NCBI GenBank assembly: GCA_039621445.1
Contig: CP154954.1
Span: 46,913,847-46,977,846 of the forward strand
Source of the DNA: Euglena gracilis
Taxonomy: Eukaryota
DNA: 64,000 nt
Direction of reading: 5' to 3'
A program made the translations under genes and the position numbers. The notes under the pieces were generated by a model. The model was not told where the DNA came from and did no database searches. It worked only from the letters and a program-made list of their open reading frames with translations. Of this stretch, positions 3,301-55,930 are shown one piece after another. Position 1 is the stretch's first letter, and the number at the start of each line of letters is the position of its first letter.

Positions 3301-6300
3301 AAATCGGCGTGCCATTTTGGTTCCATCGTATGCCTTTTGTGACTCAGGATCAGATCCTGCAGCTGCAGCAGTTTGCTGTTTCGTTCAAGTGCCATCGCCG
3401 TCAATCCCCCCAATGTCGAACAATTTATATTTATATGTTTATATCTCCACAGAAAATATTCCACACTAGGTGGGCTAACATTTGGCAAGACAATGCGCGC
3501 CAAGTTCAGCATCCTGACATCTGAGACCCAAGCCCACTACAATCGCTCAGTCACTTAACCCCCCCTGAATAGAAGCCCCTGGGGGCAACTATTCGGAACG
3601 TTGGTTGAAAACCGAGGGGGGGCTTCTATTCGGGGGGGGGGGGGGCACTATTCAGAAAAGTGGTCGAAAACCAGTGGGTTCGAGAATTATCGAAGAAATT
3701 TCTTCGTGGGTCTACATGCCCTACCTTCTAAACCATGTCAAATCTGCTGCAAATGTTACTCTTGTGAATGCATGATCATTAAACGTAAAATCATCCAACC
3801 CTCATTTAGAGGTATTGCAAAAACTGGAGCCCTGCACTAGACATTTACCCCCACCCCGCACACCCCCACCCCCCCACACCCCCCCCCACACCCCCCCACA
3901 CTTGACCAGTGTAGGCTCCAGTTTTTGCAATATATGCTCATTTTACCAAATGCTGAAGAAGCCAAAGCCAAAGCATTTGCCGTCTCAATTCACAGACAAC
4001 CCACGGGGAGCGGTCTACTATTCGGGGGGGGGGGGCACTATTCGGAACGTTGGTTGAAAACTGAGGGAGGGGGACTATTCGGGGGGAGGGGGCGTCTATT
4101 CAGGGGGGGTAGTCACTGGCAGACCCCCAGGGTTTGTGACTGTTTCTTTCAGAATGATTGAGTGGTTGTTGGCCCAGACCTCCTCCCCCCTTGGGGGTGG
4201 TCTGCAAAAAAAATGAAAGTAAATACCCAGTGCTGAAGGCGACAAAAAACCCTTTTTTGCCATTTGTTTTTTTGTTTTTTTACGTTTGTGGTCAATTCCC
4301 CCTTGGGATTCAGAGTGGCCAACCCCCCCCCCCCACCAGGTAGTGGGTGGTGACTGACTGGTTTTTGGAAGTGTGGAACTGACCCTAGGGCGGTAAAAAT
4401 TGCATGGAACCCGTGACAAAATGCTGGTGGTCAACCGTTTGATCGCCCCAGCCAACCGTCCAGCCAAACCCACCGTTGGCCCCCGAACGTTCCGCTCACC
4501 CCTGCGCGGTGGCGTTTGCCCCCGTTCCATGTCGGCGCGGAGGAGAAGTCACTGGAGGAGCTGGCGAAGGGGGCGGAGGACCTCCAGCGGCTTCAGCAGC
4601 TCGAGCAGCTCCAGCAGGAGGAGTCCTCGGCGAGGACCGCCCAGGGCGTGCCTGCCGCGGAGGCCCCGACCCACCGAGCAGCGCAGGGCGGGCCCGCTGG
4701 CTGTGTGACGGCCCGCGAGGGGTTGATCCAGCCGCAGCGATTTGGTCCTCTCAAATAACATTTTGCTGTCCACATTTTTGTTTTAATTTGATCTATTTAA
4801 TTTGATTCAATTTAATTGATCGGGTCGCAGCATTGGCATCGGCATTAGTATTAACGTACCGCATTGCTGCGTGTTTCTGGTTTTTTTTGCCTTCCTTGTT
4901 TTTGTTTTGGCCCGCGGCAATGCGTTTGCAGCCATCGCGCGGAAGGGTCTGTGCGACGGTTCCCGGCGATGTGCCGGCTTCCCTCCATTCCTTGGCGTCC
5001 GGCGCCGCCCTGCGGTGGTCCCAGTGTGCCCTGCACTTCCGCTTCCGCTGCGGCCCCTTCCTGCAGCAAGGTGCCGATGGGCAGTGGCGCTGCCTCCCCC
5101 GCTTCGCCTGCCAGTACTCCTCCCCGCTGGTGTGCAGGGGCCCCCTTCCCGCTGAGCTGTTGGAGCCCCACTCCTGTGATGACGTCCCAAACATCCCACG
5201 CACATTCCTTTCCCAAATGGCGACCACATCTATTCCCCAATAGAAAGCATTTTTAGGTCGTTTGAAGTAGGACGAGAAGTTGATGCCCTTGTGGTGCCTT
5301 TTCACAGCTAGTTGTTGTTGTTGTTTTTAAACCGACAGTTACAAAAGAAAATGGCAGCTGACCACCCCTGTGGGCCAGGATCTGAAGTCAAGCTGTTTGG
5401 GGACGAAACAAGCCGGCCGCCACTCCCTTGTGTGATGTATGCCAACCCATCATCCATCCTCAGCTCTACCACCCCGTCACAGATACCAGCGGTGGCCGCC
5501 CCCAGCGTGGAGGTTCCCAGCAGCATGCCTCCCGCGGAGCCTCAGCCTGCCCAACGCGGGCGCAGTGCCTCTGTGCAGTCCCTCCTTTGGCCGTTTGCAA
5601 CAGAATCTGCCGCGTCAGGCTGAAAGGCTTGCAGCAGTTTTTACGCTGCAACTGAAAAGCTGAGTGCCTCGGTTGGCTGGCTTTGGCATGGCATGGTGAT
5701 GAATGGGAGGGGCTGGGCCCAGCTCCAGTAGCTCCAGCAGCAGCTCCAGCAGCCGACACAGCGACAGCACGCGCGCCCCAACTCCGGAGCCGGAGAATGC
5801 AAACGTCAACTGGCACGATATTAACGTTGGGCCTGCAGGCTATGGTCGGAGGCTGCTGCGGAAAGGGTGTGCTGAGTTTAAAGATTCCCTGCAGGGGGAT
5901 CCTGCATAATCCTGCATAGGTCTGTCTTTATAAATTCCTAAAACAGCAAAAGAATACCCAACCATAATGGGTTTCAGAAGGACAGGAAAAACAATTTTCT
6001 GTTTCGCTTGATTGGTATTCTGTTAGGTGAGGAAATTGTTTTTCAATCATCCCACTTTTTCTTGAAAATTTAATCAAAGAATTTTGAAGTTGAATTTTGG
6101 TACATCTCAAACCAATTTGTGTCTTTGGTATTGAGTGTCAGAGAATTTTTTGGCACCATTTTCACAAAATATTCATCATCCTCATCAGCATTTTCCTGTT
6201 TTGAATTATTTTCACAATAATCCTTCAGGGTCGATACATTTTCCACCTATTAAAGTTGGCTGAAATGCATTTTGTCAAGCTCCATCTTGTCTGGCAGCGC

Positions 6301-9300
6301 ATTTTTGAAGTGCCGCTGAAAAGAATGGGCTGATGGTGTTTTTTTTTTGATTCACAAAAGGCGACTTGCAAACTCTGAAAAAAAAAGATGTTTACAACCG
6401 CCAAAATCAAGCCCTCACTGGGGCCTAAAACTGACCCCTCCCCCCGGGGGGGGGGGTGCCTGCTTTGCCAGAAGCGAAGTTAGTGGCGGCAATAAACAGG
6501 CAAGAAGCCTCAGTGCAGCCTAAGGGGGCTTTGGGCAGGCACCACATTGCACAAGGTGCCCCCCTGGGCTTGACAGAAACGGATCTTTGGCTTTCACATA
6601 TGCAAAAATGGCCAGAAATTGCAAAATGGATCGGATTTGGGCTGGCCAGGGCAAATTTTGGGTCAAAAAACCCGTGTTTTTTTTACACCCCTGGCAGTTT
6701 TTTGGGGCTTTTTTGGAGTTTCAATGTTTTGATCCCCGGTTCGACTCCCAGTCCCGGGGGACCCCCATGGGGATTACCCAGCAGCCTTATTCCAGCCAGC
6801 CCAAATTTTCCAGCTTCTGACCTGGACCCCCCCTCCCCCTCCCCTCATTAAGCAATGCCCCGGTCTCAGGCCCAACCCCCATACATTCTGGGAGCATAAT
6901 TGGGAAAACGGTTGCGTCACAGACCTCCATTTAGTATGTATCACCAAAAATTTTTTTTTGCGTATCACATGTATCACAGCCTAAAAATTAATGTATCACA
7001 TATGTATCACCAAAAATTTTTTAATGTATCACATATGTATCACCAAACAAATTTCAATGTATCACACATGTATCACCATTTTTTTATAGATTTTTTTCCG
7101 TTTTTACATCAAAATGTTTTTTCCTTTTTCCGCTTTTCATCCTTGTTTCCTTGCCTCTCTGCAGACAAATGGAACGTTTTTCTTGTGATTATGCTTTGGA
7201 GACATACCATTGCTTAACACCTGTCCCACCCCACCCCCGGGGGTGACTGGCTGGTTTTTTTCAGAGTGACAAGACCCCCCAGGGATAGGCCCGGAAATGA
7301 AAAAGTGGCTGGCCTGGCGCCGAAGGCGCCGGATTTTTTTTATATTTTTTTCAGACTTTTTGGCAATATTGCCTTGCCAACATAAGCGCATCCAACGGTG
7401 GCCTATCGCCCCCTCCTCCGGGGGGGGGGGGGAGGTAAAGTGACTGCTGATTTTTTGGGAAAAAGTGATTGACTGGTAGGATGGCAGAGATTGGTTGCGT
7501 TTTGAAGCATCCCGTGGCATGTAGTGTGCTATTTGCCATCAATTTCGTCAGAATCCAAAAGTGATCCGGAAGTGATGGGGATGGGTCAGAAAAGGAATTC
7601 TCTTGCAATGCCAACAAAAGTGTACATTTTCCGTAACATCAAATCGCGCAGAGAGGGAAAGTATCATCTTGCTGCAAAGGCCATGTTGAATCGACCACAA
7701 ACAGATCTGAGCCAATCCCTTATTCAGCTTCCGTCCGCTTTGGTACCGCAAGCAAAGATGTTGTTTAAAACTGTTTTGTGGATGGTGAAGCATGGAATCG
7801 CCAACCGAAAGCTTCGTTCATTGTTAGACTTGCAGCATTTGAATTGGGCGGTGTATGATTTGTGTCATGTGTCCAGCTACACACCTGTGGCCGTGAAGAA
7901 GCAGCCATGGGAACCTGAGTTCCTCAAGCTCGGGTGAGCGACGTCTTATGTTTGTCTGTTAATTTTTCATCTTACAAATTTGTGCTTCACAACTTTTTTT
8001 TATGTTTCACCAAGGAAAATTTGTGTATCACATGTGTATCACCAAAGTTTTTTTTTTAATGTATCACATATGTATCACCAAATTTTTTTTAGTGTATCAC
8101 ATATGTATCACCAAAAAAGAATTAATGTATCACAGATACGTTGTGATACGCACTAAATGGCGGTCTGTTGCGTCATCTTTTGCTTCCTTGTGGTTTTGTG
8201 TGGCGTTTGTAATTTTGGGAACTTTGAAAATTCTCAAAAAAACTTGTTGGAAAGGCTCTAAGGTTGAACCTGCCTCTGGGGTAGGGGTTTTCTTAAGCCG
8301 TAGGGGGTCTTGCTTCCTGGGGGGGTCCAGTCAGCCATCACTTTTTTTTCAAGCCAGCACCTCCCAGCCAGGCTGTGGACCCCCCCCCCAAAGGTTCGCT
8401 GAAACAAAGTTTGGGCCAGCCCAGCAAAGCCAGCCTGGCAGAAAATTTTTGAAGACAGCGGTCAAAAAATGGCCAAAAATGGCATTTTGGGGTGCTTTTT
8501 GGGGTTTCACTGCTGAAAAATGCCAACCCAGCTGTATTTCGGCTTTTTCGGGTGTTTTTGGGTACCCACCGGGTCCAGCTCCCAGCCGGCCGGACCCACC
8601 CCCCACTCACCACTCACCTGACAATTGGGCCAGAAGCGAAGTTAGCGCCGGCCATGTACAGAAAAGAAGCCTGAGTGCAACTAAGGGAGTCCAGCCAGCG
8701 CCTTTTTCCAGCCGGCCCGCGGAACCCCCCCCCTCCGGGATCCTTAAGAAAACCCCTGCTTGGGGTAAGCCAGAGTCACAAAAGCAGGTTGGTTGTAGTT
8801 ACTCAAGGAACATGGTTCTCTTTTTCTCTCTCTCTTTTGTTTCAGGTCTCAGGTTTTCCGAAGGCTTGGAGACAAGGCCAGTTCACCTGCAGCACAGCGT
8901 ACTCAAAGTCGAAGCCGCAGCAAGAGCCGCAGTAGAAGCAAGAGCCGAAGCAAGAGCCGCAGCCGCAGCAAAGGCAGCCACTCCACGCGCAGCCGGTGTG
9001 TACTCCCCCGAAATATAGAACCAGTTCTAACCCTCGGAGGGGTGTTCCAAATTTGGTCAAGAATTTTGTCGATCCGAAGGTTACCATTTTCCCCTCACCA
9101 TGTGCAATAATTTAGACCATTTTTGGAGAGTATTTTTGGTTGCTTTGGTTGGAATTGGTGGACGAAATTTATCAGGCAGCATTTATTCAAAAAAAATTGT
9201 CTCTGAAATTCCGAACCTCAAATTTTTTGGTGCTTTTTTATTCTCCGTTTCAAAACCCCCATTTCAGGGAGTGAAGTTCAAATATTTGGTCGCTAAATCA

Positions 9301-25400: not shown

Positions 25401-26963
25401 ACTATATGCCAACCCCCCCCCCTGTCAATAATTACAAAATTCCTCCCATGATTGAAAATTTTCCCCCAGACCGAAGTTTTGATGGTCACCCCGTTTTGGA
25501 ATTCAGCCACGTGGTGGCCCCAATTATATTAATAAAGATGAAAGTTCCAGGGACCACCTGCGTGAAAATGCATGATTTGCTCAGGAAAAATATTGGATGG
25601 GGAATAAATACAAATAAAACCATTGAATGTTTCCTGTGGAGAAATCCCAGCCTAAGGCGTTATCAAAGCGGTTTTGCGCTTCTTTGGGTTATTTTGGAGA
25701 AAATGCCCCCCCACCCCCTAAAGCCACCACAGACCAAGTGGCTGACGCCTTGACCTAAATATTCTAATTTTCAAAAACCCAGGCCAGTAATACATACAGG
25801 GTTAGGGTTAGGGTTATGGTTAGGGTTAGGGTTAGGGTTAGGGTCAGGGTTAGGGTTAGGGTTAGGGTTAGGGTTAGGGTTACCGTTAGGGTTACGGTTT
25901 GGGCTAGGTTTAGGGCTATGCTTTTGATCTCTGGGTTTGGTGGACTGAGATTCCACACCATGTTAGCACCTTACCAAAAGACTTTGGAACCAAAACTTGG
26001 AGAAATACGATGCATTTTCGGACACCCTCCCAAAACCCCCTCCGAATACTCCAAGGGCTGGCCTAAGCTCCCTTCCCCAGTGATATTTGTACATTGCGTA
26101 CACAGCTCATTTTTTGTGCCCGAATCCTCTGTTTTTCTCGACCTTCTGATTTGGAAAGAATCAAGCGTACAAATTTGGCGTAAAGGCCCAAAGCTCCACA
26201 AGTGGGAGAGAGTTGTGACACTTCCCCAATGTCCACAAATCAGCCCTTTTCATTTGATGATGTCCTATGTGGCTGCCACACGTTCATACGTCAGACCTGG
26301 GGTTGCCCTCCTCATTTCACTAAAACCCCCTCATAAAACCATAAGTGCTGACACAATTGCTTCAATGACCGAAGATTATTTGGCCAAAAAAGAGGCACCC
26401 CCCAGGTGTGGGGGACCCATTGCACCAGAGGGGCTGGAGTTAGTTTACTCAAAAAATTAGGCCTTTCTGCCCAAGAAGTTCGTGAAATTGGCCAGTGGAG
26501 GAGGGTGGAGGCATTTACAGCCCATTATCAACGACTTGGTTCCCAAGCTTCCTTAGAAAATGCCCTGCCCCCCCTAATTCTAGTGCGCAATCAGGCCTCA
26601 CAAAGGGCAAAGTGTGGAGCCCGAGGTGTCTCGTACTCCCTCGAGGAAAACCGACAAGGGAGGAAGGGACACCGAGGGCGAACCACAAAGACATTGTGAG
26701 CCCGACCCGCCCACCCGTGAAAGAAAATTTGTTTTCAAGAGCCCTGGGTCAAAAGAAAACGGGAGCCAGGGACCCCCCCCCCCCCGAGGAGCAAGAAGCC
26801 ACGTCGCCACGTCGGAGCAGCATCATCAGCCAACCGGGGACTCCTAACCCAGCGCAGCGAGCAATCATACAACACCGCCGGCGAGCAAGGCATGGCCTCA
26901 CAAGGTTTTTGTGCTTCGACCTCGGTGTCCCTTCCTCACTTGTCGGTTTTCCTCGAGGGCGTA
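22465..26963 (+). mobile_element. DIRS1-like tyrosine-recombinase retrotransposon, full length but decayed
   Basis: Left ITR 22465-22565 is complementary to 26833-26905. ICR ~26594-26702 is complementary to both ends. Frameshifted RT (YLDD at ~24415; KINVKKSTLKPTQVVSHLGF), RNase H (~24890-25210), MT remnant, and YR (~25610-26560; HCTRGAGVSLLKKLG...IGQWRRVEAFTAHY). Confidence 0.9.
25798..25911 (+). repeat. Interstitial telomeric repeat, 19 units of (TTAGGG)-like sequence, inside the YR ORF
   Basis: 114 bp of mostly perfect AGGGTT units between ...AATACATAC and AGGGCTATG.... Confidence 0.92.
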
Positions 26964-28030
26964 AAAAAGAGGGCAGCGGAGGCTGGGGAATGCAGAAGCC
27001 GCAGAATCTTAGGTAGCGGCAGCAAAACCCCAGTCCGTGGCCGTCACAAGCCCCCACCCCCGGAAAGACAGCGAATTTACAAGGCCAAGGCAATGGCCAG
27101 CATTATCACAAAGACTGGGGCTATGTCAGTCACCAATATCAACAGGAAGGGAGTCTGCAGCAACAGGTCAAACAGACACTCCCCAAGGGCAGCAGATCCA
27201 GGCAGGTCATCAGCCCTTCAGGTCAAGGCCCTGGTGGCCATCATTTCCAGGTTCAAGCTATGGAAGCCAACACTATCAAAAGCCATGACAGCCGTCGTCT
27301 TCATGAAGCCGAAAGACTGCAGCAACAATTTCAATCACAAGGCTACCAGGTTCGTACAAGGCACTCTTGGGGGGCGGAGGCCCAGGCCCATTTCAGAAAG
27401 GGCCTCCCAGAAGCTAAATGATTGCACTAGCACACCCTTATATACACCTCCCCACTGCAGACAACACAGACTTTCCCCCGTAGGTAAAACGTTGAGGGAA
27501 AGCCTGTCTTTGAGCAACCCTCTGGTAGGGCCAGAAGTGACCCTAGTGATGGGGCACCCAAAGGGAAAGGTTCTCCCCAGTGTCGGGCATGTGGAATGCC
27601 CAGACACTTTAAAAACAGGGTGGACCCCTACAGGGCCCCATTGGCAGAAAGCAGAAGCCGAACAAGGAGGTGCTAAACCTCATCAGAGAGGGGGTTGTGG
27701 CAGATCTGCCCCTTCCCCCTCAAATGTCTTTAGAAAACTCCCTTCAAATAACCCCAAGAAAATGTCTGCTCAAAGAATTCTGAAGGAAAACGGATTTTCA
27801 ACAGCAACCAGACAAATCACCCCAGAAGAGGCATTTTTTTCTTTTGTCATCATTTCCAAGAAAAGAGAATGAAAGACAAGTGAAAGACTAATTTGACACT
27901 GTAGACAATTAAATATCCACTCCACCCACCAGAAATTCAGAATGGAACACATGGAAGACATTCTCCCATATTTAATAAAAGTTGGTTCTCTGGAAAAAAA
28001 TCGACCTCAAAGATGCTTATGTTCATTTAA
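26964..28030 (+). mobile_element. Fragment of another DIRS element (gag C-terminus and RT N-terminus)
   Basis: FFSFVIISKK ... CRQLN ... KFRMEHMEDILPYL ... KIDLKDAYVHL; directly abuts the right end of the 22465-26963 element. Confidence 0.75.
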
Positions 28031-28945
28031 TTGTGATTGATTTTAATTGCAACACAAAACAAAATAATGGAACAGATAAAGAGAAAAAACCCATGAGAAT
28101 ATGTTTTTGATGCAGCTGATGGGCAGTTAAATTTCGGTTGAGTGCGCTGATTCCTAAGCGCTCTCATAACCAAAATTTCTGCTCCGTGCATGAACCAACC
28201 CAAATAAAAATTATGGTTTCCCTCCTTTATTTTGATAAACTATGCTGAATTCCATCATTATTGAGCCTCACAAACCCCTGCAAAAACTGCGGGAATTCAG
28301 GCGCCAATCTCAGAAAATTCTGCTCCAAGGGCTCGCAAGCACCCTCACCAAATCCAACATTTTCCCTGAAAACCAAAGTAAAACTGCATAAAAAGCCTAA
28401 AGCACGCTAAATCGGCCCAAAATCACCATTTAGGAATACCTAGAATCAGTCAATCCTTCTCCTTGCACAACCATCCCATGGGCGCCTTGGAGAGAAATTT
28501 TTTAAGGAAATGTTCAGAAAACTTTAAAATTCGAGCTAAACCGCCCCAAAAAGGACTTTTGAAGAGGAAAAGGTCCGCCGCCCGGTGGTCGGCCTCAAAC
28601 GGTCATTAGCTAACCCCCCCCCGAACAGTGCCCCCCCCCCCCCCCCCGAATGGAAGCCCCCCTCGGTTTTCGACCAAAATTCCGAATATTCCCCCTCCCG
28701 GACGGTAGGCCCCTGCCAGTAGATCAGTCAATTGGGGCGGATGGCAATTTGGTTTCTTCAGGCATTGGCTAAATGAGGGTTGAGATATTTTATGTTTCAT
28801 GATCCGGTGCATCCACAAGAGAAACATTTGCAGCAAATTTGACATGGTTTGGAAGGATAGGACATGTGGAGTTCCAGGGCTTGTTTGCCTGGGGCGTAGG
28901 ATCGAATTCTCTTTCTCTCCGGTCGGGCCGTTCTTTTTACCCCCG

Positions 28946-29016
28946 TGGGGGTACCCGCCGGGACTCGAACCGGGATCTTTGGGACCACAACCGAGTGCCA
29001 GATCCACTCGGGTACC
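28946..29016 (-). ncRNA. tRNA-His(GTG)-like module without a D stem (copies at 29254-29324 and 29561-29631)
   Basis: GGTACCCG/CGGGTACC perfect 8-bp acceptor stem followed by CCCA; T arm CCCGG-TTCGAGT-CCCGG; loop TT-GTG-GT on a mismatched anticodon stem. Confidence 0.6.
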
Positions 29017-29113
29017 GGTGGCGATAATTAAGGCGTGCCGCCTGCAGGGCCTTCTCCGGTCTCGACCCTGGGCTATCGCCCGATTACCGCCAGGTGGTCC
29101 GCCCGCGTTCGCT

Positions 29114-29177
29114 TGGGGTAGTTGGCCGGCCTCGAACCGGCCACACTCCCCTTCCTCGGGAATCAACCTCTGCTACC
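29114..29177 (-). ncRNA. 64-nt D-armless tRNA-like module (copy at 29421-29484; partial copy at 29729-29760)
   Basis: GGTAGCAG/CAACTACC acceptor stem (6/8) followed by CCA; ATTCCC-7 nt-GGGAGT arm; perfect T arm GCCGG-TTCGAGG-CCGGC. Confidence 0.55.
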
Positions 29178-29977
29178 AGTTCCAGGGCTTGTTTGCCTGG
29201 GGCGTAGGATCGAATTCTCTTTCTCTCCGGTCGGGCCGTCCTTTTTACCCCCGTGGGGGTACCCGCCGGGACTCGAACCGGGATCTTTGGGACCACAACC
29301 GAGTGCCAGATCCACTCGGGTACCGGTGGCGATATTAAGGCGTGCGGCCTGCAGGGCCTTCTCTGGTCTCGACCCTGGGCTATCGCCCGACTACCGCCAG
29401 GTGGTGCGCCCGCGTTCGCTTGGGGTAGTTGGCCGGCCTCGAACCGGCCACACTCCCCTTCCTCAGGAATCAACCTCTGCTACCAGTTCCAGGGCTTGTT
29501 TGCCTGGGGCGTAGGATCGAATTCTCTTTCTCTCCGGTCGGGCCGTCCTTTTTACCCCCGTGGGGGTACCCGCCGGGACTCGAACCGGGATCTTTGGGAC
29601 CACAACCGAGTGCCAGATCCACTCGGGTACCGGTGGCGATAATTAAGGCGTGCCGCCTGCAGGGCCTTCTCCGGTCTCGACCCTGGGCTATCGCCCGATT
29701 ACCGCCAGGTGGTCCGCCCGCGTTCGCTTGGGGTAGTTGGCCGGCCTCGAACCGGCCACAGTGGGCCCACAAAGAAATTTCTTCGATAATTCTCGGACAC
29801 CCTGGTTTTCGACCACTTTTCCGAAAAGTGTCCCCCCTCCCCGAATAGAAGCTCCCACCCCCTCGGTTTTCGTCCAACGTTCCGAATAGAAGCCCCAGGG
29901 GGCTTCTATTGGGGAGGGGTTAGTACAGTAGAGTGGGTAGTCACACTAGAACAAAACACAAACACCAAGTCAGGCAG

Positions 29978-32900
29978 CGCGACACTTCGGGCACCGCACG
30001 TCCCTAAGGTGAGCCATGCCTTATTTGCCAGAGTTTTGAAGGTGAATTTTTTGGGAAGGTTATCTTTGCGCATGTAGTGCTCTGTTTTGCCTGTTTTCCT
30101 GTTTGCCTATTTTTCCTGTTTTGTCTCTATATTGGCTGTTCTCAATTGCCCTATGGCAGAAGTACTGGTGCAGTTTATCTCAGCGACAGACCCTACAGAG
30201 ATACAATCCCTTTACAATGCTATTTTTTTCGTGACGAAAGCACTTGGAGTATCGCCTCAATGGACTACAATGAGGTTCGTGGTAGCAGTGGAGCAGCTGT
30301 GTGGAGAGGCCATGGTGGCCGCATCAACCAAACCTACATCGAAGCGTGGCTCTTCTCGCTCGCCCTCGCGTGCGAGGTGGAGATGGGGCCGTCGTTGAGT
30401 TGACGGACAAACAGGCCTCCGTGGCCTACAAGCTCTGAAAGTCCAGGCGCTGCGAAGCAGGGATGGAGTCGTTCCCCGGAAGCTGCAGCACCTGAAGGTG
30501 CGGCGATGACATTGGAAACTAACAGGGAAGCGCACGCGACGACGCAGGACAACGAGGAAGAGCCCCTGGAGTGGGAGTAAACCCGCCAGAGCCTGTGGGC
30601 GGACCCGGAGAAGGTCCTTCTCCAGCAGCAAGCGGGCTCTTTGACTTTGGATATCCGTTCTTAATTGGAAGGGTTACCCAAGTTCCAAGGCCTAAGGACA
30701 AGCCAGAGGTCAACAACCACCGGTGGTACTCCACCCCAAAGTTAGACAACCTGCTTTGGGCCAGACAGCAAATAATTTTGAGTTTGTTGAGGACGTATGC
30801 AATGATTCGCGAAGGAGTGCAGGCTAACAAGCTCGTATTGAACCAGTAGTTATTCTACCTGCTGTTGTAACTGGACGTCTGGTTGGTGGGCGGAGAGGAA
30901 GAAGGCCTCCCTGCCCCTGCCCAAGTCGGTGGAACAGATGGAGCAGAAGTTGTTCTTGGCGGATGACCTGAAGATTCAACAGGAGGCGGAGTAGATCAAA
31001 AAAGTCAAAGGTTGTTTCTCCAGCCTTGGAGATTTTTCCAATGCTTCCCCCTCCATCACTGGTAATTCCCAGAAGGGAATGTCGTGTACTTCACTTTCCA
31101 CAGATGGAGGATTCAAGTTCAAGAAGTGTGGAAAAGCAAAAAGTGGAGGAGAATGGCGAAGATTTGGAGAAGGACAAGGCAAAGAGGGGTGGAAGAGAGG
31201 AGGAAAATTCAAACGCAGCGGCAAGCCCTGCCCAGCTGCCTCAGCAGCCTCGGGGAAGGGGAAACCTCCAGAACCCCACCTGCCCAGCACCCACAGTGGG
31301 CTGCAGCAGGGCCCCAATGGCAGGAGCCACAGAGGCCTGGCCGCCCCCACAAGCCAAAGGTATCCCAGGTCTGTGCACACCCATCATTCATGCACATTCC
31401 CCCAGTATTCCAGTGGAGGAAATGGTGAATCTTGCAGAAGGGGCCTGGGGGGACACACCACCACCCCAGAGGTTGAGAACATGTCTGCCCTGGTGCGAAA
31501 AACATGCCAGTCCTCACCTTGTTACACTGATCATGGAGGGGCTCACACCCCAGCCTTTCTGTGACAGGCAGAAAAGGCTCCAATTTGGAGCAAGCCAGAA
31601 AAAATTGTGGAAGATAACCAGAAATATGGGGCTGTGTAAAACGCGGAAGCAGATGGCACAGCCCATCTGCTCCACTGCTCCCTCATTTCCAAATACGAAA
31701 CCTCAGGGGAAATAAAATGGTGTTTCATTTCGGGATTGAAGAGAAATAAATGCACATTTCCAGGTGAAAAAGTTTACCCTGGATCACAGGCAGGGCATCT
31801 ACACCCCCCTCCAGAAACGTCACTGGGGGGCAAAATAGACTTAAATGTGCCTTATTTTCATCTACCCCAGCACGACACCCTAAAGCCTTATTTAAGGTGC
31901 AGGGTAGGAGACAATGTCTGGGAGTACCAAGCAGCCCCTTCTGGGCTAAACATGGTGCCCCAGGATTTACAGAAGAAGAATTCAGGTGTATGTATATTTC
32001 GACGACATACTAATCACAGCACCTACACCAAACATCTCAGCATAGAGGATTTAAGGCCAGTGTGTTCAAAATAAATGTAAAGAAAATCCTGCTGCGGCCC
32101 TTCCAACTGGTGCCCCACTGGGTTTGCATCAATTTCCAGGATGGGAAACTGCAACTTTCCCCTCAAAGGGCAAAGGGGGTAAGAAAAGAACTAGGAAAGA
32201 TCATCACAAAAAGCATCATGACAAAAAGGCAGGAGGCGTCCATTTCAGGAAGAATGAGATCATCTCTCCTGGCCCTGCCCTTTTTTTAAGGGCTTTCACA
32301 TGAATGCTCTCAAATTTTCTGGTAGATCACTCACCGGACCCTTGGGAGTCTCTCACCTCGTCTCCCAGGAAATAAAAGAGGAGGAAAAAATGTAAAAGAT
32401 TTGCTGGGGAATTGGTCAGGAAGACGATTTGTTCAAAAAAAACACAACATCTTGCACTCAGACAGCAGCACCATGCACTGGGGGGGACTGTGCCCAGCAT
32501 CATTAAAGTTCATCCAGGAGCACTGGAGGGAAAAAAAATCCCTTCACATAAATGTAAAGAACCCCTGGCTGCCACAAGCGCAGTCAGATCCCTGGCAAAA
32601 GCAAACGACAGAGTTCTGCCTGTGTGTGGACAATCGAGTAATCTTTTTAGTTAAGCAAGGGGGGAGAAAGAACCCTTTCAACAAAATTTCTCATCCATTT
32701 TTCCATTGGCTGATCCACAATGTCACCCTGGAGGTGCAGTGGTCCGCTTCAGCCAATGCATAGCAGACCCACGCAGCAGTTCAGGACAAGACAGGGGGAT
32801 TACTCCCTGGACAAAAAACTGTTTCGTCATCTGGAAAGAATTTTTCAGCCCTTCATCACACTCCAGACAGATCTTTTTGCCTCGCCAGAAATCAAAAGAC

Positions 32901-34007
32901 TTACAGATTTTTTGTCCAGATGGCCCCATTGGGAGGCAAAGGCAACAGATGCACTGCAGTGGCCACAGGAAAACCCGGGGGGGGGGCTCTATGCCAACCC
33001 CCCTGGTCCATAATTCAAAAAAATTCCGGCTACGCTGCAGCTTTTTCTCAAAGCAAGCGTTTTGATGGTGGTCCCCTTTTGGGATTCAGCAGCATGATGG
33101 CCCCTATCAATAAACCTGAAGGCCCCCCACACTCCATGTGTCAGAGTAAACCCTACCCGGAATTTCCAAAACTGTTGGGGATAAAAAAAATCTTACCCCT
33201 CCTTTGCCTGATCTGTTCAGGTCAATTTTCCAGGGCAGAAAAATTCTACCTGCATCCATTGATGACTTTGTAAGGTGGAATCCCAGCCCGAATACATATC
33301 AGAGTGGCTTTACACATCTCTGGAACATCCTCCCGCAGGGGGGGTCCCCCCCACCAAGCATCATCTAATGAAATTGCTGATGCTGTTGTGCAATTGTTCA
33401 GAGTTTCCCACACACAGGCCAGAAATGCCCATTCAGGTGTGTTACTTCCACCAGGGGTTCGGGGAAAAATAAGATTTCACCCCCTTTAAATCCGTAAAAA
33501 AAAGCGTGGAACAAAAATATTAAAAAATATGATGATGTCTGGAATCCCTGGCCTCTGCTGAGGCATCTGGCCTCAGCTCCATTCCCCTCCCTTCTGAACA
33601 ACATTGCACCCTTACGATTGCAACTCCTTCTTGTGTATTGCCTTTTAATGTTGCTCAGATCTTCAGATTTATCACAATGAACGTTGTTGAAGTTTATTAG
33701 ATACAGGCCCCTATGTAAAATTACAGGAAGCTCACCTCCTACGATTATTAAAGGGGCGGTTGGGTAGCGGGTGGATGGGCCATGCGTACAACCCTTCCTG
33801 GAATGAGGGCCACACTCACACCGTCCCCTCCATACATCCAGGAACGTTGTGAGAAGAAAATGGAGACAATTACAAAGGGCCAAAAAATTGTGTGTGTGAG
33901 AGAATGGTTTCTTCACCAGACATTCCCAAAATCTCCTCCTTTCACCTTGGGGTTTATGTTTTGCCCTCGGTGTCTCCCCATCCACCTTGGTCTTCCTCGG
34001 GGTAGTG
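29978..34007 (+). mobile_element. DIRS1-like retrotransposon, heavily decayed, with YR C-terminus and ICR deleted
   Basis: Termini resemble those of the neighbouring elements. RT KIDLNVPYFHL...WEYQAAPSGL, YFDD at ~31993; RNase H LHSDSSTMHWGG...HINVK; MT TDLFASPE...LYANPP; partial YR at ~33250-33740. Confidence 0.85.
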
Positions 34008-35699: not shown

Positions 35700-37500
35700 A
35701 AAACGCAGGCTAGGTGCCATATTGGCTTTTTTATGGGCTGCCCGTGACAATTCTCGAACATGTGGTGGCAAGACAGAATTCTCAGGGTTGGTGTGTGTGG
35801 AATGCGAAGTTTTATTAACAGGGGCCACCACACAGCTGAAGCTCACAGGAGGCAAATCAGAAGGCATTTTAGATGTCTGTGTTCCTTTAATCTCAGGAGC
35901 CACTGGCACAGGACAGACCAGGGGGGTTTGCATACACCTCTGAGAACATGTCCAGAGGGCAGTTCAACATGTCTGTGGCCACTGCCTGAAAATGGGGCCG
36001 TCGACTCACAAACTGAGGAAGTTTGTGATTCCCTGGTGATGCAAACATGTCCACAGTTGGGTTTATGAATTGCTGAAATTTCTGCATGAGTTTTTTGGAA
36101 ATGAAAGGGTTTAAACTGTAATCCCCTGGGTCGAAGTGCCATCTGCTGATGGCATCGCTTTTCATGCTTTGGGAGGGGGCCCAGTGAACTTGGAGGGTGA
36201 TGCCCATTTCCATACACCACTTGAGAAAAGGTCTGATGAGTTTGTTCAGGTGGGGTTGCCTGCCCCCCCCTTTGAGAAGATAGTAGTAGGAAAGTTTGTT
36301 GTCCACTGTTAGGGACACTGTGTCCTTTTTCCTGGCCAAAGACCTTACAGTTGAGATGGCTGCGATCAATTCTTTTACATTGATATGTAAATGAGAGTAT
36401 TTTCGCCAAAATTCTTGTATTTGAGTGCCAGCTTGTAGGTCCAGGCCTCCCCAACCAAAGGTTGAACTGTCTGACTCCAGGTGTCTGGTGGCTAGGCTTG
36501 GGAAGGGTCTCCCCCCCCCAGGTCTGCAGAATTTCCCTGACATCTTGCAGTTGAGATTTGACCTCCTCTGGGATTGGAACCTGATGATCCCAGGCAAATT
36601 TTTCTTGTAGGTTGACAAATCCTACCAAAGTGTCTGTGAATGCTCTGAGGAAGGGCAGCCCCACCAAGAAGCTTCTTATGCATCCCAAAATTGAGGCCAT
36701 TTTCCTGCAACTGAGGGACTGGTGTGTGACTAATTTTCCCAGTTCCCTCCGAACGATTTTCAGTTTTTCTGTCCCCAACTGCAATTTTCCCGGTGCCGAT
36801 TGAGGTGGAATCCCAGATGTGGGAGATTTTGGGTGGGTTGAAGGATTGATTTTTTGCTGCTGATTTTGAAACCCCCCTGCAGTAAATCTGCTAGCATGAT
36901 GGCCAGGTGGTTGCTGACTTGCTTCTGACTGTCTCCCATCAGGATGATGTCGTCCAGGTATACAAAGCATAAAGGCCTTTGGCCCTCCAACGTTTTTCCA
37001 GGCATTTCATTAGACTCATGAATTTTTCTGGCAGCACATTTAAACCAAAACAAACTGCCTGGAATTCCCAGCATGTGTCTTCCAGAGTCATCCTCATGTA
37101 GGGTCTTAGGGCTGGGTTCAACATTAAATGAAAGTAGGCGTCCTTTAAGTCTACTTTCGCACCCCATTGTCCTTTTTTCAGGAGCCTGAAGATGACCTGG
37201 ATGTTGTCCAGTTTGAAGGGGTGGGGGAAAAAATGCTGGTTCAGCTGGCGACAGTCGCTGATTAAACGATGTTTCTCCCCCTGAGGTTCTTTTTTGGAGA
37301 TTAAAAACCAAGGGATGGTGTGTTGGGTACCTTCCCAAGGGACTGGTTTTATGGCTCCTGCCTGAAAATAGTCTTGTATAATACTTTTTGCCTTTTGTAT
37401 TTCCACCTTTGATTTTGGTATGGAACATGTGCTGAGGGGGAGGGGTCACTCCCAAGGGGGGGTTACCCCCTGTGCGATGAGTTGCAACACCCTGGGGGGG
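35700..37500 (-). pseudogene. DIRS pol (RT, RNase H, N6-adenine methyltransferase domain), frameshifted
   Basis: Domains are split across ORFs 36939-37406, 35843-36970 and 35893-36618. Confidence 0.9.
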
Positions 37501-37656
37501 CAACCTTTTGCCACCATGGCAGCTGGTCCTGAAGCCTCTGAAACAGAGGCACTCCCAGAAAGTGCTCCTCTGTCAGCAGCAGCACCTCGGTGATCTGTTC
37601 CAGAGATCTCAAGCTTGCAGCTTCCCACAGCGTGCAGATGTCTTGGCTTCTGCCCC

Positions 37657-38436
37657 TCAGGCTGGTTGACTTTGTGGCACAATGCCCAGCTCTGGGGGAC
37701 ACAATGTCCTTTTGGGACTTGATGAGTTCTGACTGAAAAGGAAGGAGCAATACTTCCTGGCAAGGTGTTGGGCAAACCATTTTCCTCCTTTGGACTTGCC
37801 TTTCCCTTTGGGGCCAGACCGCCATGGTCTCGGTTGCCAATTTGTTTGCCATTGCTTGAACTTCCACACTTTTCCACCTGTGGGGGTGGGTATATGCCAC
37901 ATGGGGAACTCACCCATGAAGGGGGATTTGATACCCTCTTTGTTGATGCCAGCTTGGGCTTTGGCCATTTTGATGTCTTCAGGGGTGAACAGGCCATTCC
38001 CTGGCTGTATGGTCTGAGGGATGCTCCTCCTCTTCCTCTCCTTGACAATGTGCCCTTCACAGGCAGCCACATATGCGAATAATTGTTGGCTCAAACCCAA
38101 TATGTCTTCAGGGGCTCCTTGTAAGGTGCAGTGCAGCGCTGCCAAGATACGCAGTATGTTCAAGAACTTCTGCTGGACTGCACGCATGGTGCGGTCATAC
38201 CCACTCTTACCGTCTTGACGGTGGTTGTTTTCCTCCGCTTTGGGCTTCAGGGTCTTCCAGGTGGGTATCTGTTCCAGCAAACTTCGTACGTCCAATCGTA
38301 AGTCCCCAGACTGTACCTGTGTGCATATCCCCTCCAGGTCCCCCGGCAGTGCCTCCTCGGCCGTCTGCAAGGGGAAGTCCTGGGCTTCCTCCGCCGCGCG
38401 CGCTGCCTCCTCGTCGCGATCCATCTCCGCCGTCAC
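37657..38436 (-). CDS. DIRS gag-like ORF1 (partial)
   Basis: 259-aa ORF upstream of RT with a helical core and a basic/Trp-rich C-terminus; similar segments occur in the other DIRS copies (LEQIPTW..KPKAEENNHR vs IGRVTQVPRPKDKPEVNNHR). Confidence 0.7.
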   Translation of the reverse strand: MTAEMDRDEEAARAAEEAQDFPLQTAEEALPGDLEGICTQVQSGDLRLDVRSLLEQIPTWKTLKPKAEENNHRQDGKSGYDRTMRAVQQKFLNILRILAALHCTLQGAPEDILGLSQQLFAYVAACEGHIVKERKRRSIPQTIQPGNGLFTPEDIKMAKAQAGINKEGIKSPFMGEFPMWHIPTPTGGKVWKFKQWQTNWQPRPWRSGPKGKGKSKGGKWFAQHLARKYCSFLFSQNSSSPKRTLCPPELGIVPQSQPA

Positions 38437-41400
38437 CGTCGTCGCCCACTTCTCGTACAGCTTGAATTCTGAGCTCCAATGACGGTATCGAGACGTTCTT
38501 CGTGAGTGAGACGCTTTAAAGGTACCGCAAGATATGGTTGTAGGTTACACTCCACCATAGCCACTCCAGTGAGCTTCCGTGCGGCAAGGGCACATCGGGC
38601 TGTATCCAACCCTGCCCCAGTCCACTTCTTACCTGAACCAAATCGTGGCCATCACGGCGGTAGCGTCGGCATCTCGCAAGAAGGCTGTTGTCGGCGATTC
38701 TTGTAAGAAAATGTTGCTCCACGCCGCTTCGAAAGCCTCTTTGTCGGTCTCGTCTTGCAGGTGCGAAATTTTGCATGATCAGCTTGAACGAATGGTTACA
38801 GCTCCGTGCCAAAAAACGGTTATGATCCGCCTATTCCGGAAAAGAAAAGCAGTAAGAAACACCAAAACCAACACCAAAAAAAGACAAACAACAGCCGGAA
38901 AGAAGAGCAAGACCTCACCGGGGTCTTGTGCGGAGCTGTCCCCTGCAAATGGGGTTCATCCGTAAGTGAACCAAACCATTTCAACCGTTTTTCTCTCTGC
39001 CTAATTGTGCCTAATTTTGGGCAATGCCTGAAATTGTGATGATGAAGGTTTTGCTCGCAGAAAATGAATTTCTTTCGAAAAACAAGCGCCCTAAATTCAA
39101 CCTTTCTGCAAAATAACTATCCTGGTTCTCATGTGACAGATGACGTGGGCAGAAACAGTGGCAGGGGCAGAAGTTTATGTGATTGTCAAGAACCTCCCTC
39201 CCGACTGGTTGGACACGTCTGGACAGTGGTGAGATTCTCACAAAAGCGATGATGGTGTTGGGATCTCTTGGTGTTGAAACATCTCCCAAACCAAAAAAAG
39301 CATCTGGTCAGAAACAACAAAGAATTCACTGGAAGGGCTGCACGAGAAAGCCCCAAACCGTTGCTTGCCGACCATGGGGGGGTTTAACGACCGGACCCCC
39401 ACGCACTCACTTTCCCCCGAAAATGGCCGAAAAATCGCAAAAAGCTAAAAATAGCACCTTTTCAAAAATTTTCAGCGCCAAAAAAAAATATCCCAGGGGC
39501 TTGGCCGGACCACACCATTGCTGGGCGACCCCTGAGGGGGGGGGGTCACTTTCCGCTCTGAAAAAACCAGTCAGTTACTTTACTCCCGGGGGGGGGGGGG
39601 TCGACCACTCTTGAATTCGCTTATGTTGGCAAGGCACCATGGTGACGCAATGAGATTGGAGGTATGTTCTCATATGTGGCCCTCGCCCAATTTGAGGAAA
39701 AGGAGGCAGAGTTCAATCAGAAGAATGGTCACACAAATGTCCTGGAGTTTGCCTATTCCTTCATCATGAATCAGTTGCCAAAAAATTCCAAAAAATTTCC
39801 AGCACCTTTGGCGCCAAGCCAGCCACTTTTTCATTTTCATGCCTACCCCCACCCCCAGACCGGACAGTCATTCACTATTCCGAACCATACATCTCTCTAA
39901 GGTTTTGCGAACCCCCCCCCCCCGGGGGCGGCTGCAGCCAGCCCCGATTTGGGCCCAGCCCAGCCGCCCCCTCCCCCCGGGGTGCTGCTACCCTAGATAG
40001 CCAGCCCCTTTTTGGGGGTCCAGCCCAAAATTTTTCGGCGCAAAGCGCAAGTTTTTTTGAAAAACTGTGTTCAAAAGTGGCCAAAAATGGGGTTTGGGGG
40101 CGTTTGGGGCATTTTTGGGGGGTTTCAGATGCATCATTTTTTCAAAACTGTGTTCTGCAGGACATTTTTGGGCATTTTTCCGATTTCACTCCAGCTCGCC
40201 CCGGTTCGGGTCCAGCCCCCCCCGGGGGGGGGGGGGCGGGCTAGCCAGCCCAAATTTCTAGCCCTAGCCCAGCAACCCCCCCAGGGTCCTGAAAAAGATG
40301 TATGTTCCGAACCCCCTGGGGCCAAAAATGGTCCATTTCGGCTGTTGTTGGCTGCGGGAAAGGTGGGAGCGTATTTTTGGGAACGGGTGGCCCTACCCCC
40401 AGGCCCTGGCAGGTTTGGCTCCGGGTGTGGGCACTGGGGGTGCCCCATGGTTGTGGTGCTACCAAAGAGCATGTGGAGGGTAGATGCATTTCCTTTTTTT
40501 GTTTTTAATCACAAATTGTGCTGCTTTCAACCACACATCCCCCCTGGTGGGGGGGGGTCGGCTGGACCCCCCCCCCCCGGGGTCCAAGGCTAAAAAAAAA
40601 CCCCTGATACGCACACACATCTTTTCTGTTGCCAAAGAAACCCCACACCAGCTGACAAAGAAGAGGTGAAGAAGACCCTGTTGGCCAGATGGAAATGAGC
40701 AGAGGTCAAATCAGAACCAGAGCTTCCAGGCTGGAATGCAGGTGGGTTTCTTCCTCAGAACTGGGAAAAATATTCGCACCGAGATGAAGGTTTTTTCTTG
40801 CAAAATCCTGGAGAATCGGAGCCAGCGTGTCGCTGAGCGACCCCCAAGGTGTTCCACACGAAAATTTGGGCTGGCTGACCCCCAGGAAGTGAGAATTGGC
40901 CAACTGGGGATTGAACCAGGAACCAAAAAAATCGAAACTGCACAATTTTTTCAAACTGCCAATCTTTTTCCACCCAAATTATGCCCTGACCAGCTTTCTG
41001 AGCCACTTTGTGCACAATCACCGTCCAGCCGTCCCTTGGGTGTCTGAAACTCATCAATTGGAGGGGGGGGGGCTGGCTGGTTGGACCCCCAAGGGGGGGA
41101 TGGGCGGCCTGTTGACCATTGACCTGATTGGGGCAGGTTGTATGGTTTTTTTTGGTGAAAACAAAACCAGCTGGCCATCGTTGAAAGCTCTGGGGCGACT
41201 CGAAATGGGAAGAGAGAAAGGGGGCAAGTCAATGGGTTGAACCCAGGGATGTGGAGGAGGTTGCAGGGATGTGGAGGAGGTTGGTTTAGGGCCCACAATT
41301 AAATCAATTCTCTGCAACTGTTGCTGCACAGTGAAGAAAAATTGATAATTTGCTCCAATGGGGTTCATTGGACAAAATTATTCGGCAAATCCCACTAATG

Positions 41401-53940: not shown

Positions 53941-53944
53941 TCCG

Positions 53945-55930
53945 TTTTACGTATCACATGTATCACGGCCTAAAAATTAATGTATCACATTTGTATCACC
54001 AAAAAATTTTAAATGTATCACATATGTATCACCAATAAAATTATAATGTATCACATATGTATCACCAAAATTTTTCATAAGAATTTCCTTTTTTACATCA
54101 AAATGTTTTTCCCCCTTTCTGTTCCGCTTTTCATCCTTGTTTCTTTGCCTCTCTGCAGACAAATGGTACATTTTTCTTGTGATAATGCTTTCGGCAATGT
54201 GTTACGACTCACCAATTCGGCAATTTTTTTTTCCAATTTGATGTCGGGATTATAGTAATTACCTCCCCCCCCCCCCGGGCGCTTGGCCTCCCCAAGTAAT
54301 ACCCCCCCCCCTCGGGGGACTTCGGGCAAAAAAATAATACCCCGGGTATTATTTGGGGGGGTTTACTCTTGGCAATGGTTTAAGGCTGTGTTTATAGCAA
54401 CATGGCTTTGGTCAAAGTCTGTGTTTCTAAACACAGACTTTGACGTGCCGAAGTCCGTGTTTAGAAACACAGACTTTGACCTAAGTCTGTGTTTCTAAAC
54501 ACGGACTCCGACCAAGAAAACTGTGTTCACAGTATTTGGACCCTGAAACATCCCAATGATGCAGAAACAAAGGACTTTGGGGGGGTCAATTTTTGGGCTT
54601 TGGCGCCTTCGGAGCCAAGAGAAAATGGCCCCTTTGAGGGGGGGGGGGAACAAATTTGCCAAAACGGCCATTGTGAGGGAGGGGACACTTGGGGGGGGGG
54701 GGCAATTTTTGGGCTTTGGCGCCTTCGGCGCCAAGAGAAAATGGCCCCTTTGAGGGGGGGGGGGGACAAATTTTGAGGGAGGGGACACTTGGGGGGGGGG
54801 GGGGCAATTTTTGGGCTTTGGCGCCTTCGGCGCCAAGGCCACTTGGGGGGGGGGACAAATTTGCCAAAACGGCCATTGTGAGGGAGGGGACACTTTGGGG
54901 GGGTTAACTTTTGGGCGCCAAGAGAAAATAGCCACTTTGAGGGGGGGGGACAAATTTGCCAAAACGGCAGGGAGGGGACACTTTGGGGGGGTCAATTTTT
55001 GGGCTTAGGCTCATTTGGCGCCAAGAGGAAATGACCACTTTGAGGGGGGGGACAAATTTGCCAAAATTTTTGACCACTCTGAGGGGGGCACTTTGAGGAG
55101 GGTGAGGGTCTTTTTTTCTGTCCCAAGTGGCCTAGAGGGTGGCTCCCCAAAAATATCACCATACAAGGTTAGGTTAGGTAACATCTGTGCTCATTAACTT
55201 TTGGGAGCCTACCAAAGAAGTCATGGATCGTGGGTGCAGCGCCCGGAGCATTCTCATCAACATTGCAAATTGAAGCACGCAAAATGGGGTATGCAAAAGG
55301 AAGGAGACGATGTAATCTTGTGTCATTTCTTCACATATGTTCCCATGTTTAACGGTAATGTTACCACTATTTCGAAAGGATTCTAGTTCGGAAGACCACA
55401 GACGGCGGCCAAAAGCTGCCCGGCGGACACATTTTCTTATTCTGAAAAGGTTTCCGGCGTCCCAGAGCTGTGCAGCGGATCCTAATTCAGCATCGCTTTG
55501 TCCCAAAAATCTGTCGTCAGTCTGCCGTCCGTCGTCAAGGTTGAGAAACACAGACTTTGACCAAAGCCATGTTGCTTTATAAACACAGCCTTAAATAACT
55601 GCGTCTTAAACGCGGACTCTGACCTGAGTCTGCGTTTCGAAACACAGACTCAGGTCAGAGTCTGCGTTTAAGACGCAGTTCTTGATATGGCGGAATTGTT
55701 GTCTCGGAATCCTGGCTTCCGCGTTTTGAAGGTTCCCTTTGGAAGGAGCGGCTGAGAAGTTGCTGACAAAAAAAGACAAAAAAATTTGTGTATCACATGT
55801 GTATCACCAAATTTTTTTTAACGTATCACATATGTATCACCAAAATTTTTTTAATGTATCACATATGTATCACCAAAATAAAATTAATGTGTATCACAGA
55901 TACGTTGTGATACGCACTAAATGGCGGTCT
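53945..55930 (+). mobile_element. Second, 5'-truncated copy of the ATGTATCAC hAT family, with nested repeats
   Basis: Same subterminal arrays and 3' TIR (GTGATACGCACTAAATGGCGGTCTG) as 6920-8167. Nested: an inverted-repeat element at ~54381-55685 and a tandem repeat at ~54570-55095. Confidence 0.75.

Follow-up and report, generated by a model that had tools for sequence, protein, structure and literature searches.

Tandem repeat families with tRNA-derived, RNA polymerase III (Pol III)-type segments and units of 200-360 nt are described from newts, frogs and salamanders (PMC10702118). They include PolIII/TAN of the newt, a tandem family of ~360 nt that its authors attribute to tRNA-Glu retroposition, as well as Rana/polIII (~250 nt), Hy/polIII (~200 nt) and Xenopus OAX, all tandem families with tRNA-related Pol III-type segments (PMC10702118). 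PMC12054243 likewise lists amphibian tRNA-related tandem families, and PMC10702118 adds satellites derived from short interspersed nuclear elements (SINEs), the sSats of squamate reptiles. A second group of precedents concerns the scattering of satellites as short arrays. Dispersed human alpha-satellite arrays show short duplications at most insertion sites, and 2-10 bp of homology together with extrachromosomal circular DNA (eccDNA) has been proposed as the route of their dispersal (PMC7719264). The Cast satellites of Tribolium were found in eccDNA on two-dimensional gels, and insertion of eccDNA or carriage by transposons is proposed (PMC11610590). Here we present a minus-strand array of 2.9 head-to-tail units of 307/308 nt, found in a 64,000-nt window of Euglena gracilis DNA (contig CP154954.1 of assembly GCA_039621445.1, positions 46,913,847 to 46,977,846). 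We judge, with a probability of roughly 0.6, that an abundant tandem family of tRNA derivation is here dispersed as a short array, which was inserted as a multimer and most likely at the DNA level. The array is best read as a piece of a PolIII/TAN-like satellite family, a kind of element that is already known, the likeness being one of description only. The rival explanations, namely a SINE, a composite transposon, a decayed tRNA gene cluster and a replicon of Pol III-made or circular RNA, are each weaker than this one.

Structure and insertion of the array

Tandem Repeats Finder (TRF) delineated a single tandem array at 28870-29760 (score 1733), in which a period of 307 is repeated 2.9 times with 97% matches. 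The alignment of the units and that of the A and B flanks, taken together with TRF, place the inserted array at 28871-29760. The 2.9 tandem units of 307/308 bp described in the initial annotation, a note made from the sequence before the present analysis, are thus borne out by the TRF period and the unit alignment. Read on the minus strand, which is the tRNA-sense orientation, the array begins 19 nt into a unit and stops 13 nt short of a unit end. By the unit alignment, unit 3 (29472-29760) comes first and is 5'-truncated by 19 nt, unit 2 (29165-29471) is a complete 307-nt unit, and unit 1 (28870-29164) comes last and is 3'-truncated by 13 nt. Six substitution sites and one 1-nt indel distinguish the three units in the minus-strand alignment. 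Unit 2 has four substitutions of its own, at unit positions 66, 81, 108 and 126, and lacks one nucleotide at 138; the outer units 1 and 3 are identical at these five clustered sites (unit positions 66-138).

Sequencing runs from public archives entered the analysis of the insertion site through the mapping of reads and contigs on 29454-30400, a 947-nt stretch that comprises one repeat-free period and the right flank. Four runs were used: the DNA run X1, the small run X6, which is one of six (X6, X16-X20) guessed to be RNA, and the raw-read RNA-seq runs X23 and X24.

The DNA to either side of the array belongs to another interspersed repeat. The left part of this host repeat (28615-28870, plus strand) matches 3711-3809 with 86% identity over 103 nt, and more weakly further out; the right part (29766-29922, plus strand) matches 3556-3710 with 85% identity over 159 nt. 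In the paralogue at 3556-3809 (minus strand) the two flanks are contiguous at 3711/3710, with 28769-28870 and 29766-29922 adjacent on the opposite strand (subject positions 440/441). The same empty junction was recovered as a loose-end consensus from 26 + 16 X1 contigs, one X6 contig and three X23 reads. Given the paralogous empty site at 3711/3710, the array represents 890 bp inserted into another repeat of high copy number. The earlier view of a mobile sequence is upheld in that this copy arrived by insertion, on the empty-site paralogue in the window and the empty-site contigs and reads.

An imperfect 5-bp duplication brackets the insertion. Its left copy is GTGGA (28866-28870, plus strand, from the flank alignment) and its right copy GTGGG (29761-29765, plus strand, from the flank and unit alignments), the latter lying outside the repeat unit. 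Both internal junctions of the array hold 32 nt, corresponding to unit columns 296-308 and 1-19, that are missing at both array ends. Hence, the inserted DNA had at least one complete unit-to-unit junction, and its source was a concatemer, i.e. a tandem array, or a circle. The circular or concatemeric intermediate of the initial annotation survives to this extent; its RNA-based version is disfavored by the RNA-seq counts and the absence of a reverse transcriptase (RT), both presented below. We posit that a multimer formed beforehand, with no fewer than 1.9 units where there are now 2.9, entered one copy of the host repeat as DNA and that its insertion would have left the short imperfect duplication. 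The likeliest route might be that a longer array gave rise to an extrachromosomal or rolling-circle product, which was captured or reintegrated at a break with the help of short homology.

This scenario parallels what is proposed for the dispersed alpha and Cast satellites. As described in PMC7719264 and PMC11610590, these too form short arrays of a few units inserted in repeats or unique DNA, with 2-10 bp duplications or microhomology at their junctions, arbitrary monomer ends and a proposed eccDNA or rolling-circle route. They differ in having no tRNA derivation in those accounts, and the eccDNA route for the present array is drawn by analogy with them. So read, the locus would be a clean single-locus example of satellite scattering, complete with an empty site, a short duplication and a multimeric insert.

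The ends of the insert also bear on the first of the rival explanations, in which several tRNA-like modules form the compound head of a tRNA-derived SINE. Such an element would be transcribed by Pol III, a partner long interspersed nuclear element (LINE) would copy it, and its insertion here would have carried or later gained tandem duplications. The insert ends show no A-rich or simple-repeat tail, no terminal inverted repeats and no recognizable LINE-derived 3' region, and they fall at arbitrary points of the unit. This absence of a tail or LINE-derived region at either end, the within-unit ends of a multimeric insert, and a duplication that is imperfect and of 5 bp only all speak against a SINE, as does the lack of an identified LINE partner, the nearby retroelement remains being DIRS-like. 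In its favor are the short duplication flanking the insertion, the high copy number of the family, and the exact B boxes; in the His-like module discussed below, the B box is preceded, ~43 nt upstream, by an A-box-like motif, which is approximate and was picked out by eye against the consensus. SINE-derived satellites are moreover documented (PMC10702118). There, the squamate sSats are tandem repeats made from parts of tRNA-related SINEs, with moderate amplification and satellite-like behavior, which makes them similar to the present family; they are dissimilar in that their parent SINEs (Squam1-3) are known, whereas no parent SINE with a tail or LINE-derived part was found here. On balance, we consider the SINE explanation unlikely.

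The host repeat has several features of its own. Direct copies of a ~45-bp C-rich motif lie on both sides of the insertion site (28615-28700 and 29800-29925; in the paralogue, 3556-3660 and 3995-4110). It ends in a short palindrome, is very high-copy in X1 and draws a few RNA-seq reads. The empty-site paralogue also contains, at 3813-3932, a 120-bp insertion resembling a miniature inverted-repeat transposable element (MITE), with perfect 19-bp terminal inverted repeats and, by eye, an 8-9-bp duplicated motif bracketing it; it is absent from the array-bearing copy.

tRNA-derived modules of the unit

On the minus strand the unit is tRNA-related, with a likeness that is real but weak and lies below detector thresholds. 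All the strings quoted in the initial annotation, namely a 71-nt and a 64-nt tRNA mimic, a weaker third module and the hairpins of a ~75-nt spacer, are present on that strand. The B-box/T-loop motif GGTTCGANNCC occurs nine times in the window against 0.51 expected from shuffles, and six of these nine occurrences are inside the array, exact and two per unit.

The most tRNA-like part is a His-like module, placed in unit 2 at 29258-29323 (minus strand) by Infernal/Rfam, ARAGORN at 80% and colinearity with a metagenome contig; its other copies are at 28950-29015 and 29565-29630. It displays a perfect 8-bp terminal stem, GTG at the anticodon-loop position and a T loop that matches the B box; its D region has decayed, and CCCA follows the module. 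Against the Rfam tRNA model (RF00005) it scores 17.7 bits (E = 4.1) in each of the three units, the cut-off being 29, and the Infernal alignment spans model positions 1-71, i.e. end to end. Its D region has 10 nt against the model's 15 and no stem, and non-standard pairs occupy two of the five positions of the anticodon stem and one of the five of the T stem, the latter being a C.C mismatch in the Rfam alignment. Of the 71-nt mimic as first described, the perfect 8-bp acceptor stem therefore remains; the intact T arm gives way to this mismatch, and the 3' end is CCCA instead of CCA.

The second tRNA-like module, of 64 nt, lies across the junction of units 3 and 2 (29421-29484, minus strand), as defined by motif scan, alignment, ARAGORN and folding. 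It recurs at 29114-29177, and a remnant cut at its 5' side survives at 29729-29760. The module carries a B-box-type loop closed by a perfect 7-bp stem, and its last bases are CCCCA. The string given for this mimic in the initial annotation is present, but its "8-bp" stem contains two non-pairs and is not used in the minimum-energy fold. A weak third module with a degenerate T-loop-like motif and a 3' end of CCCCA is found at 29198-29252 (minus strand; fold against shuffles), with copies at ~28890-28944 and ~29505-29559.

ARAGORN at its default setting found no tRNA gene in the window, and no Rfam family reached its gathering threshold in any of the 64 kb; the ARAGORN and Infernal/Rfam checks envisaged at the outset thus returned, respectively, nothing and a score of 17.7 bits under a cut-off of 29. 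With ARAGORN relaxed to 80%, His(gtg) was called in three of three units and Ser(gga) in both complete copies of the 64-nt module. The same setting gave 67 calls over the 64-kb window, for which reason the relaxed or mitochondrial His(gtg) calls carry no weight by themselves. A pattern scan found that the His-like module shares an exact 21-mer with one metagenome contig, L001, the sole match. The matching part of L001 is a tRNA-derived element whose tRNA-model score is 38.8 bits and which aligns colinearly with the His-like module; this AT-rich contig is otherwise unrelated and serves as a tRNA comparator only. Taken together, the six exact B boxes, the full-length sub-threshold tRNA alignment and the colinearity with L001 uphold the proposed tRNA relationship of the minus strand. 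We conclude that the modules are tRNA-derived relics rather than tRNA genes.

Three further observations concern these searches. The palindromic T-arm 21-mer of the 64-nt module matched five bacterial contigs; none of the five matches lies within an ARAGORN-called tRNA gene, and we therefore set them aside as chance matches in GC-rich DNA. Two more patterns from the unit had no match in viral contigs. At 616-726 of L001 there is a long, AT-rich perfect hairpin with sub-threshold matches to many microRNA precursor models, which is probably a MITE-like palindrome.

Elsewhere in the 64-kb window, blastn detected no significant copy of the unit, the only match being a 38-nt fragment (6735-6772; 76% identity, E = 0.055). 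By eye, the diverged sequence around it (6727-6775, plus strand) resembles the 3' half of the His-like module; it has a B box followed by a C-run/G-run hairpin.

The head-to-tail succession of several tRNA-like modules in one orientation might recall a tandem cluster of genuine tRNA genes that has decayed into pseudogenes, and tandem tRNA gene clusters do occur in some eukaryotes. Here the modules abut with encoded CCA-type ends and no spacers, unlike nuclear tRNA genes. No module reaches the tRNA thresholds, and the apparent defects are common to all three copies. Moreover, the abundance of the family far exceeds that of a tRNA gene cluster, and the array sits as an insertion in a repeat. We therefore regard a decayed tRNA gene cluster as improbable.

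We favor instead the tandem family, whose 307-nt unit appears to be built from tRNA-derived sequence: a His-like relic whose D arm has decayed, another one or two acceptor/T-arm relics, and a segment rich in hairpins. The CCA-type ends suggest that the tRNA origin was through one or more retroposed mature tRNAs, with which the tRNA-retroposition origin of PolIII/TAN is in agreement. PolIII/TAN ("Hirt") of Cynops pyrrhogaster (Nagahashi et al. 1991), as described in PMC10702118 and PMC12054243, shares with the present family a tandem unit (~360 against 307 nt) with a tRNA-related Pol III-type segment. It differs in having one tRNA-Glu-related segment, whereas here a His-like (GTG) identity fits best and each unit has two or three acceptor/T-arm relics; also, its transcription was shown in vitro, while the 307-nt unit is known from sequence alone. 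Rana/polIII, Hy/polIII and Xenopus OAX/satellite I, according to PMC10702118, are similarly tandem units of high copy number; they carry Pol III promoter-like boxes, resemble tRNA in part and occur in large genomes rich in repeats. Their unit lengths are different and their tRNA similarity weaker or questionable, the comparison being one of descriptions; Hy/polIII is described there as having no B box, in contrast to the 307-nt unit, which has an exact one twice.

A full-text literature search with strings derived from the unit gave no match. A match to an already described tRNA-SINE or satellite, which the initial annotation had listed as evidence against a new mobile element, is nevertheless found in kind, by description rather than by sequence identity. 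The patterns of dispersed satellites and of tRNA-related tandem families both appear to fit this locus. As read, the array would be ordinary repeat biology, one more tRNA-derived tandem family; the family would gain in significance if Pol III transcribed it and the transcript were processed, or if its copying went through RNA.

Abundance, transcription and folding of the family

Twenty of the 24 listed public runs, spread over 16 studies, contain part of the stretch, and nine contain half or more of the sampled words. All but one of the runs that contain it share one organism label, the run labelled with a second organism having a share of 0.16, and none of them is on record as RNA. In X1, 2370 contigs were placed on the 947-nt stretch. 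The summed word depth should not be taken for a copy number; on the bins of the unit it amounts to 5.5e4 to 3.4e5, against 0 to 3.4e4 beyond 29966. It is similar on the adjoining host repeat, and single listed X1 pieces on the unit have depths of 64-181. The unit-to-unit joint (29760 back to 29454) was recovered in four X1 contigs and one X6 contig. The unit hence belongs to a multi-copy family, as first supposed, and this family is large and heterogeneous. Among the 2370 X1 contigs, 294 have identities of at least 99%, 742 of 95-99% and 1334 of 90-95%; these classes do not separate the unit from the host repeat because they cover the whole stretch, flank included. The "young" age originally attributed to the element thus suits this array, with its 97% matches, but not the family, whose X1 contigs range from 90 to >99% identity. 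The two satellite hallmarks of head-to-tail units and high abundance (X1 depth and presence in 20 of the 24 runs) are both found.

The pattern of two identical outer units around a divergent middle one had raised the idea of a higher-order repeat. This idea was reduced to a weaker statement because four of the five differences of unit 2 are absent from the X1 variants listed at 10% of depth or more.

The recovery of the stretch in 20 of 24 runs from 16 studies, with one organism label for all but one, and of the tandem joint in independent contigs also speaks against an assembly artefact or a contaminant from a vector, bacterium or phage. No plasmid or phage match for the array was obtained with blastn, and exact searches of prokaryotic genomes and viral contigs with the His-like 24-mer had no match. 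We consider this possibility close to refuted.

The two RNA-seq runs were sampled at 12.9 million records each (~5% of a run) and gave zero (X23) and ~2 (X24) reads of the unit. Long RNA from the unit is therefore nearly absent in the sampled RNA-seq, and the initially proposed transcription of the unit does not find backing in these runs. Folding likewise lends little to the notion of an RNA element. On the minus strand the whole unit has z = -1.68, with two of 100 shuffles as stable, against z = -1.74 and seven of 100 for its reverse complement. The 71-nt module has z = -0.57 to -1.10 (58 and 26 of 200 shuffles as stable) and the third module z = -0.52 (54 of 200). The 64-nt module reaches z = -2.23 (4 of 200), but its minimum-energy fold is a 38-nt minihelix that replaces the originally drawn stem. 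Only the 77-nt "spacer" (29326-29402, minus strand; copies at ~29018-29095 and ~29633-29710) clearly beats its shuffles, as a long imperfect rod of 23 bp with -36.0 kcal/mol and z = -3.44 (0 of 200). A family variant at 29554 (A>G, 37% of X1 depth) disrupts one pair of a proposed stem, and no change of the partner base is listed; the remaining X1 variants at 10% of depth or more are in loops or linkers. The tRNA mimics as folded structures, with z of -0.6 to -2.2, do not clearly stand out from shuffles. A new class of structured RNA fares no better, with no Rfam threshold reached and the whole unit at z -1.68 against -1.74 for the opposite strand.

No self-cleaving ribozyme is among the nine Rfam matches obtained at E up to 10 in the region 27500-31000. 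A CUGANGA-like string at the start of the unit had suggested a hammerhead, a candidate dropped for want of any Rfam hammerhead match. Neither of the two open reading frames (ORFs) crossing the array has a Pfam family, RT included, and neither do the 10 long ORFs of the window.

These data bear directly on the view put forward in the initial annotation, namely a multi-module Pol III RNA that is cut by RNases P and Z into small RNAs, or one that replicates and spreads through a circle or concatemer of RNA, with reverse transcription starting at its CCA ends. In line with it are the B boxes, the multimeric insert, such as a rolling-circle product would give, the CCA-like module ends and the stable 77-nt rod, along with a minus strand lacking any internal T4 where the plus strand has T5 in every unit. 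There is also a weak match of the His-like module to the mascRNA-menRNA family (RF01684; 22.3 bits, E = 0.29). Like mascRNA and menRNA, the module combines an acceptor stem and T arm with a reduced D region in a weak full-length model alignment; unlike them, it falls far below the cut-off of 42.5 bits and has no host long non-coding RNA context or sign of processing. Weighing against an RNA of this kind are the zero and ~2 unit reads in X23 and X24 despite the very high DNA copy number, the lack of a ribozyme or any other Rfam family to E 10 and of an RT or other Pfam family on the array ORFs, and folding energies that set neither the whole unit apart from its opposite strand nor the 71-nt module from shuffles. 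The T-stem mismatch, the CCCA end and the pair-breaking variant at 29554 add to this. We find the idea very unlikely. The ~300-nt tandem units and multimeric intermediate also call to mind the hammerhead satellites and retrozymes, from which the present family differs in having no self-cleaving motif to E 10. In Mauriceville-type retroplasmids a tRNA-like CCA 3' end is the priming site of the RT; in contrast to these, there is no RT ORF here and the context is nuclear-type and repeat-rich.

A related scenario, to which we assign a slim chance, is that the unit began as a concatemer of cDNA from mature tRNAs and may still spread as a multimeric or circular Pol III RNA, copied by a resident RT from tRNA-like ends. 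The modules abut directly, each with a CCA-type 3' tail, unlike eukaryotic nuclear tRNA genes, which normally encode no CCA. The His-like module encodes an extra 5' G paired to the discriminator, a residue that in eukaryotic tRNA-His is normally added after transcription. If this scenario were true, the multimer would have been inserted by retroposition, and the family would count as a relative of retrozymes that lacks a ribozyme. Some plasmids and viruses are known to use tRNA-like ends in their replication; to our knowledge, there is no instance in a nuclear satellite. Under the preferred explanation of DNA-level insertion of a tandem family, the tRNA-like shapes would instead be inherited relics that do not constitute a selected RNA machine.

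Several points weigh against the preferred explanation. Long arrays are the usual mark of a satellite, and the family is seen here as one array of 2.9 units. The eccDNA route is itself argued by analogy, and the imperfect 5-bp duplication could be chance or microhomology. On the RNA side, small RNAs would escape the sampled libraries (~5% of each of two runs). On the minus strand, no T4 run occurs between 29824 and 28679 and the exact B boxes are kept; the plus strand has T5 in every unit. With B-box motifs and no minus-strand T runs, Pol III could in principle read the tRNA-sense strand, and a Pol III transcript through all units is possible, as judged from these motifs. The four inter-unit differences within the 77-nt rod are all at unpaired positions, which gives a small hint that this predicted structure may be under some constraint. 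Finally, 11 X1 contigs have a loose end before 29500 with a noisy consensus (agreement 0.59), which could stem from other copies at the same host position, i.e. an amplified composite element.

The last point leads to a further rival, a composite non-autonomous transposon comprising the host repeat and an internal satellite, in which case the "empty" copies would be a subfamily without central repeats. Satellites as central repeats of non-autonomous transposons are known (PMC11610590). The host repeat is very high-copy, with direct subterminal repeats on both sides of the array, and the noisy X1 consensus before 29500 may join other copies of the unit to the same host position. Set against this, the empty junctions in 26 + 16 contigs face 11 possibly filled ones with an agreement of 0.59, and the sole other host copy in the window is empty. 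Deep coverage of the unit also extends from one end to the other and takes in the 32 nt that the insert ends lack, from which it follows that most copies of the family differ from this truncated form. A composite transposon hence appears rather improbable.

Other repeats of the window

The window contains decayed DIRS-like retroelements, interstitial TTAGGG arrays, poly-G/poly-C palindromes and several other tandem families, and we infer that it has the look of a large, repeat-rich eukaryotic nuclear genome. The decayed surroundings noted at the outset are thus confirmed by the DIRS-like remains and other repeats around the array. The DIRS-like remains at 35843-38544 (minus strand) and 30972-33273 (plus strand) have RVT_1 fragments of 23.6-25 bits, and the protein-atlas clusters nearest to their RNase H-like part carry the RT_RNaseH and Dam families; such DIRS-like RNase H clusters are most frequent in Mollusca, a hint too weak to place the organism. 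Both are frameshifted, with many stops. Interstitial telomere-type arrays of (TTAGGG)n and its complement occur at 25790-25900 (plus strand) and 59750-59950, in opposite orientation and ~34 kb apart; the second adjoins a ~140-bp tandem family rich in poly-G/poly-C (58447-59724). A 33-bp tandem motif with a doubled GTATCAC core forms four blocks (6916-7130, 8050-8161, 53938-54115 and 55753-55923), which may be subterminal binding-site repeats of a DNA transposon.

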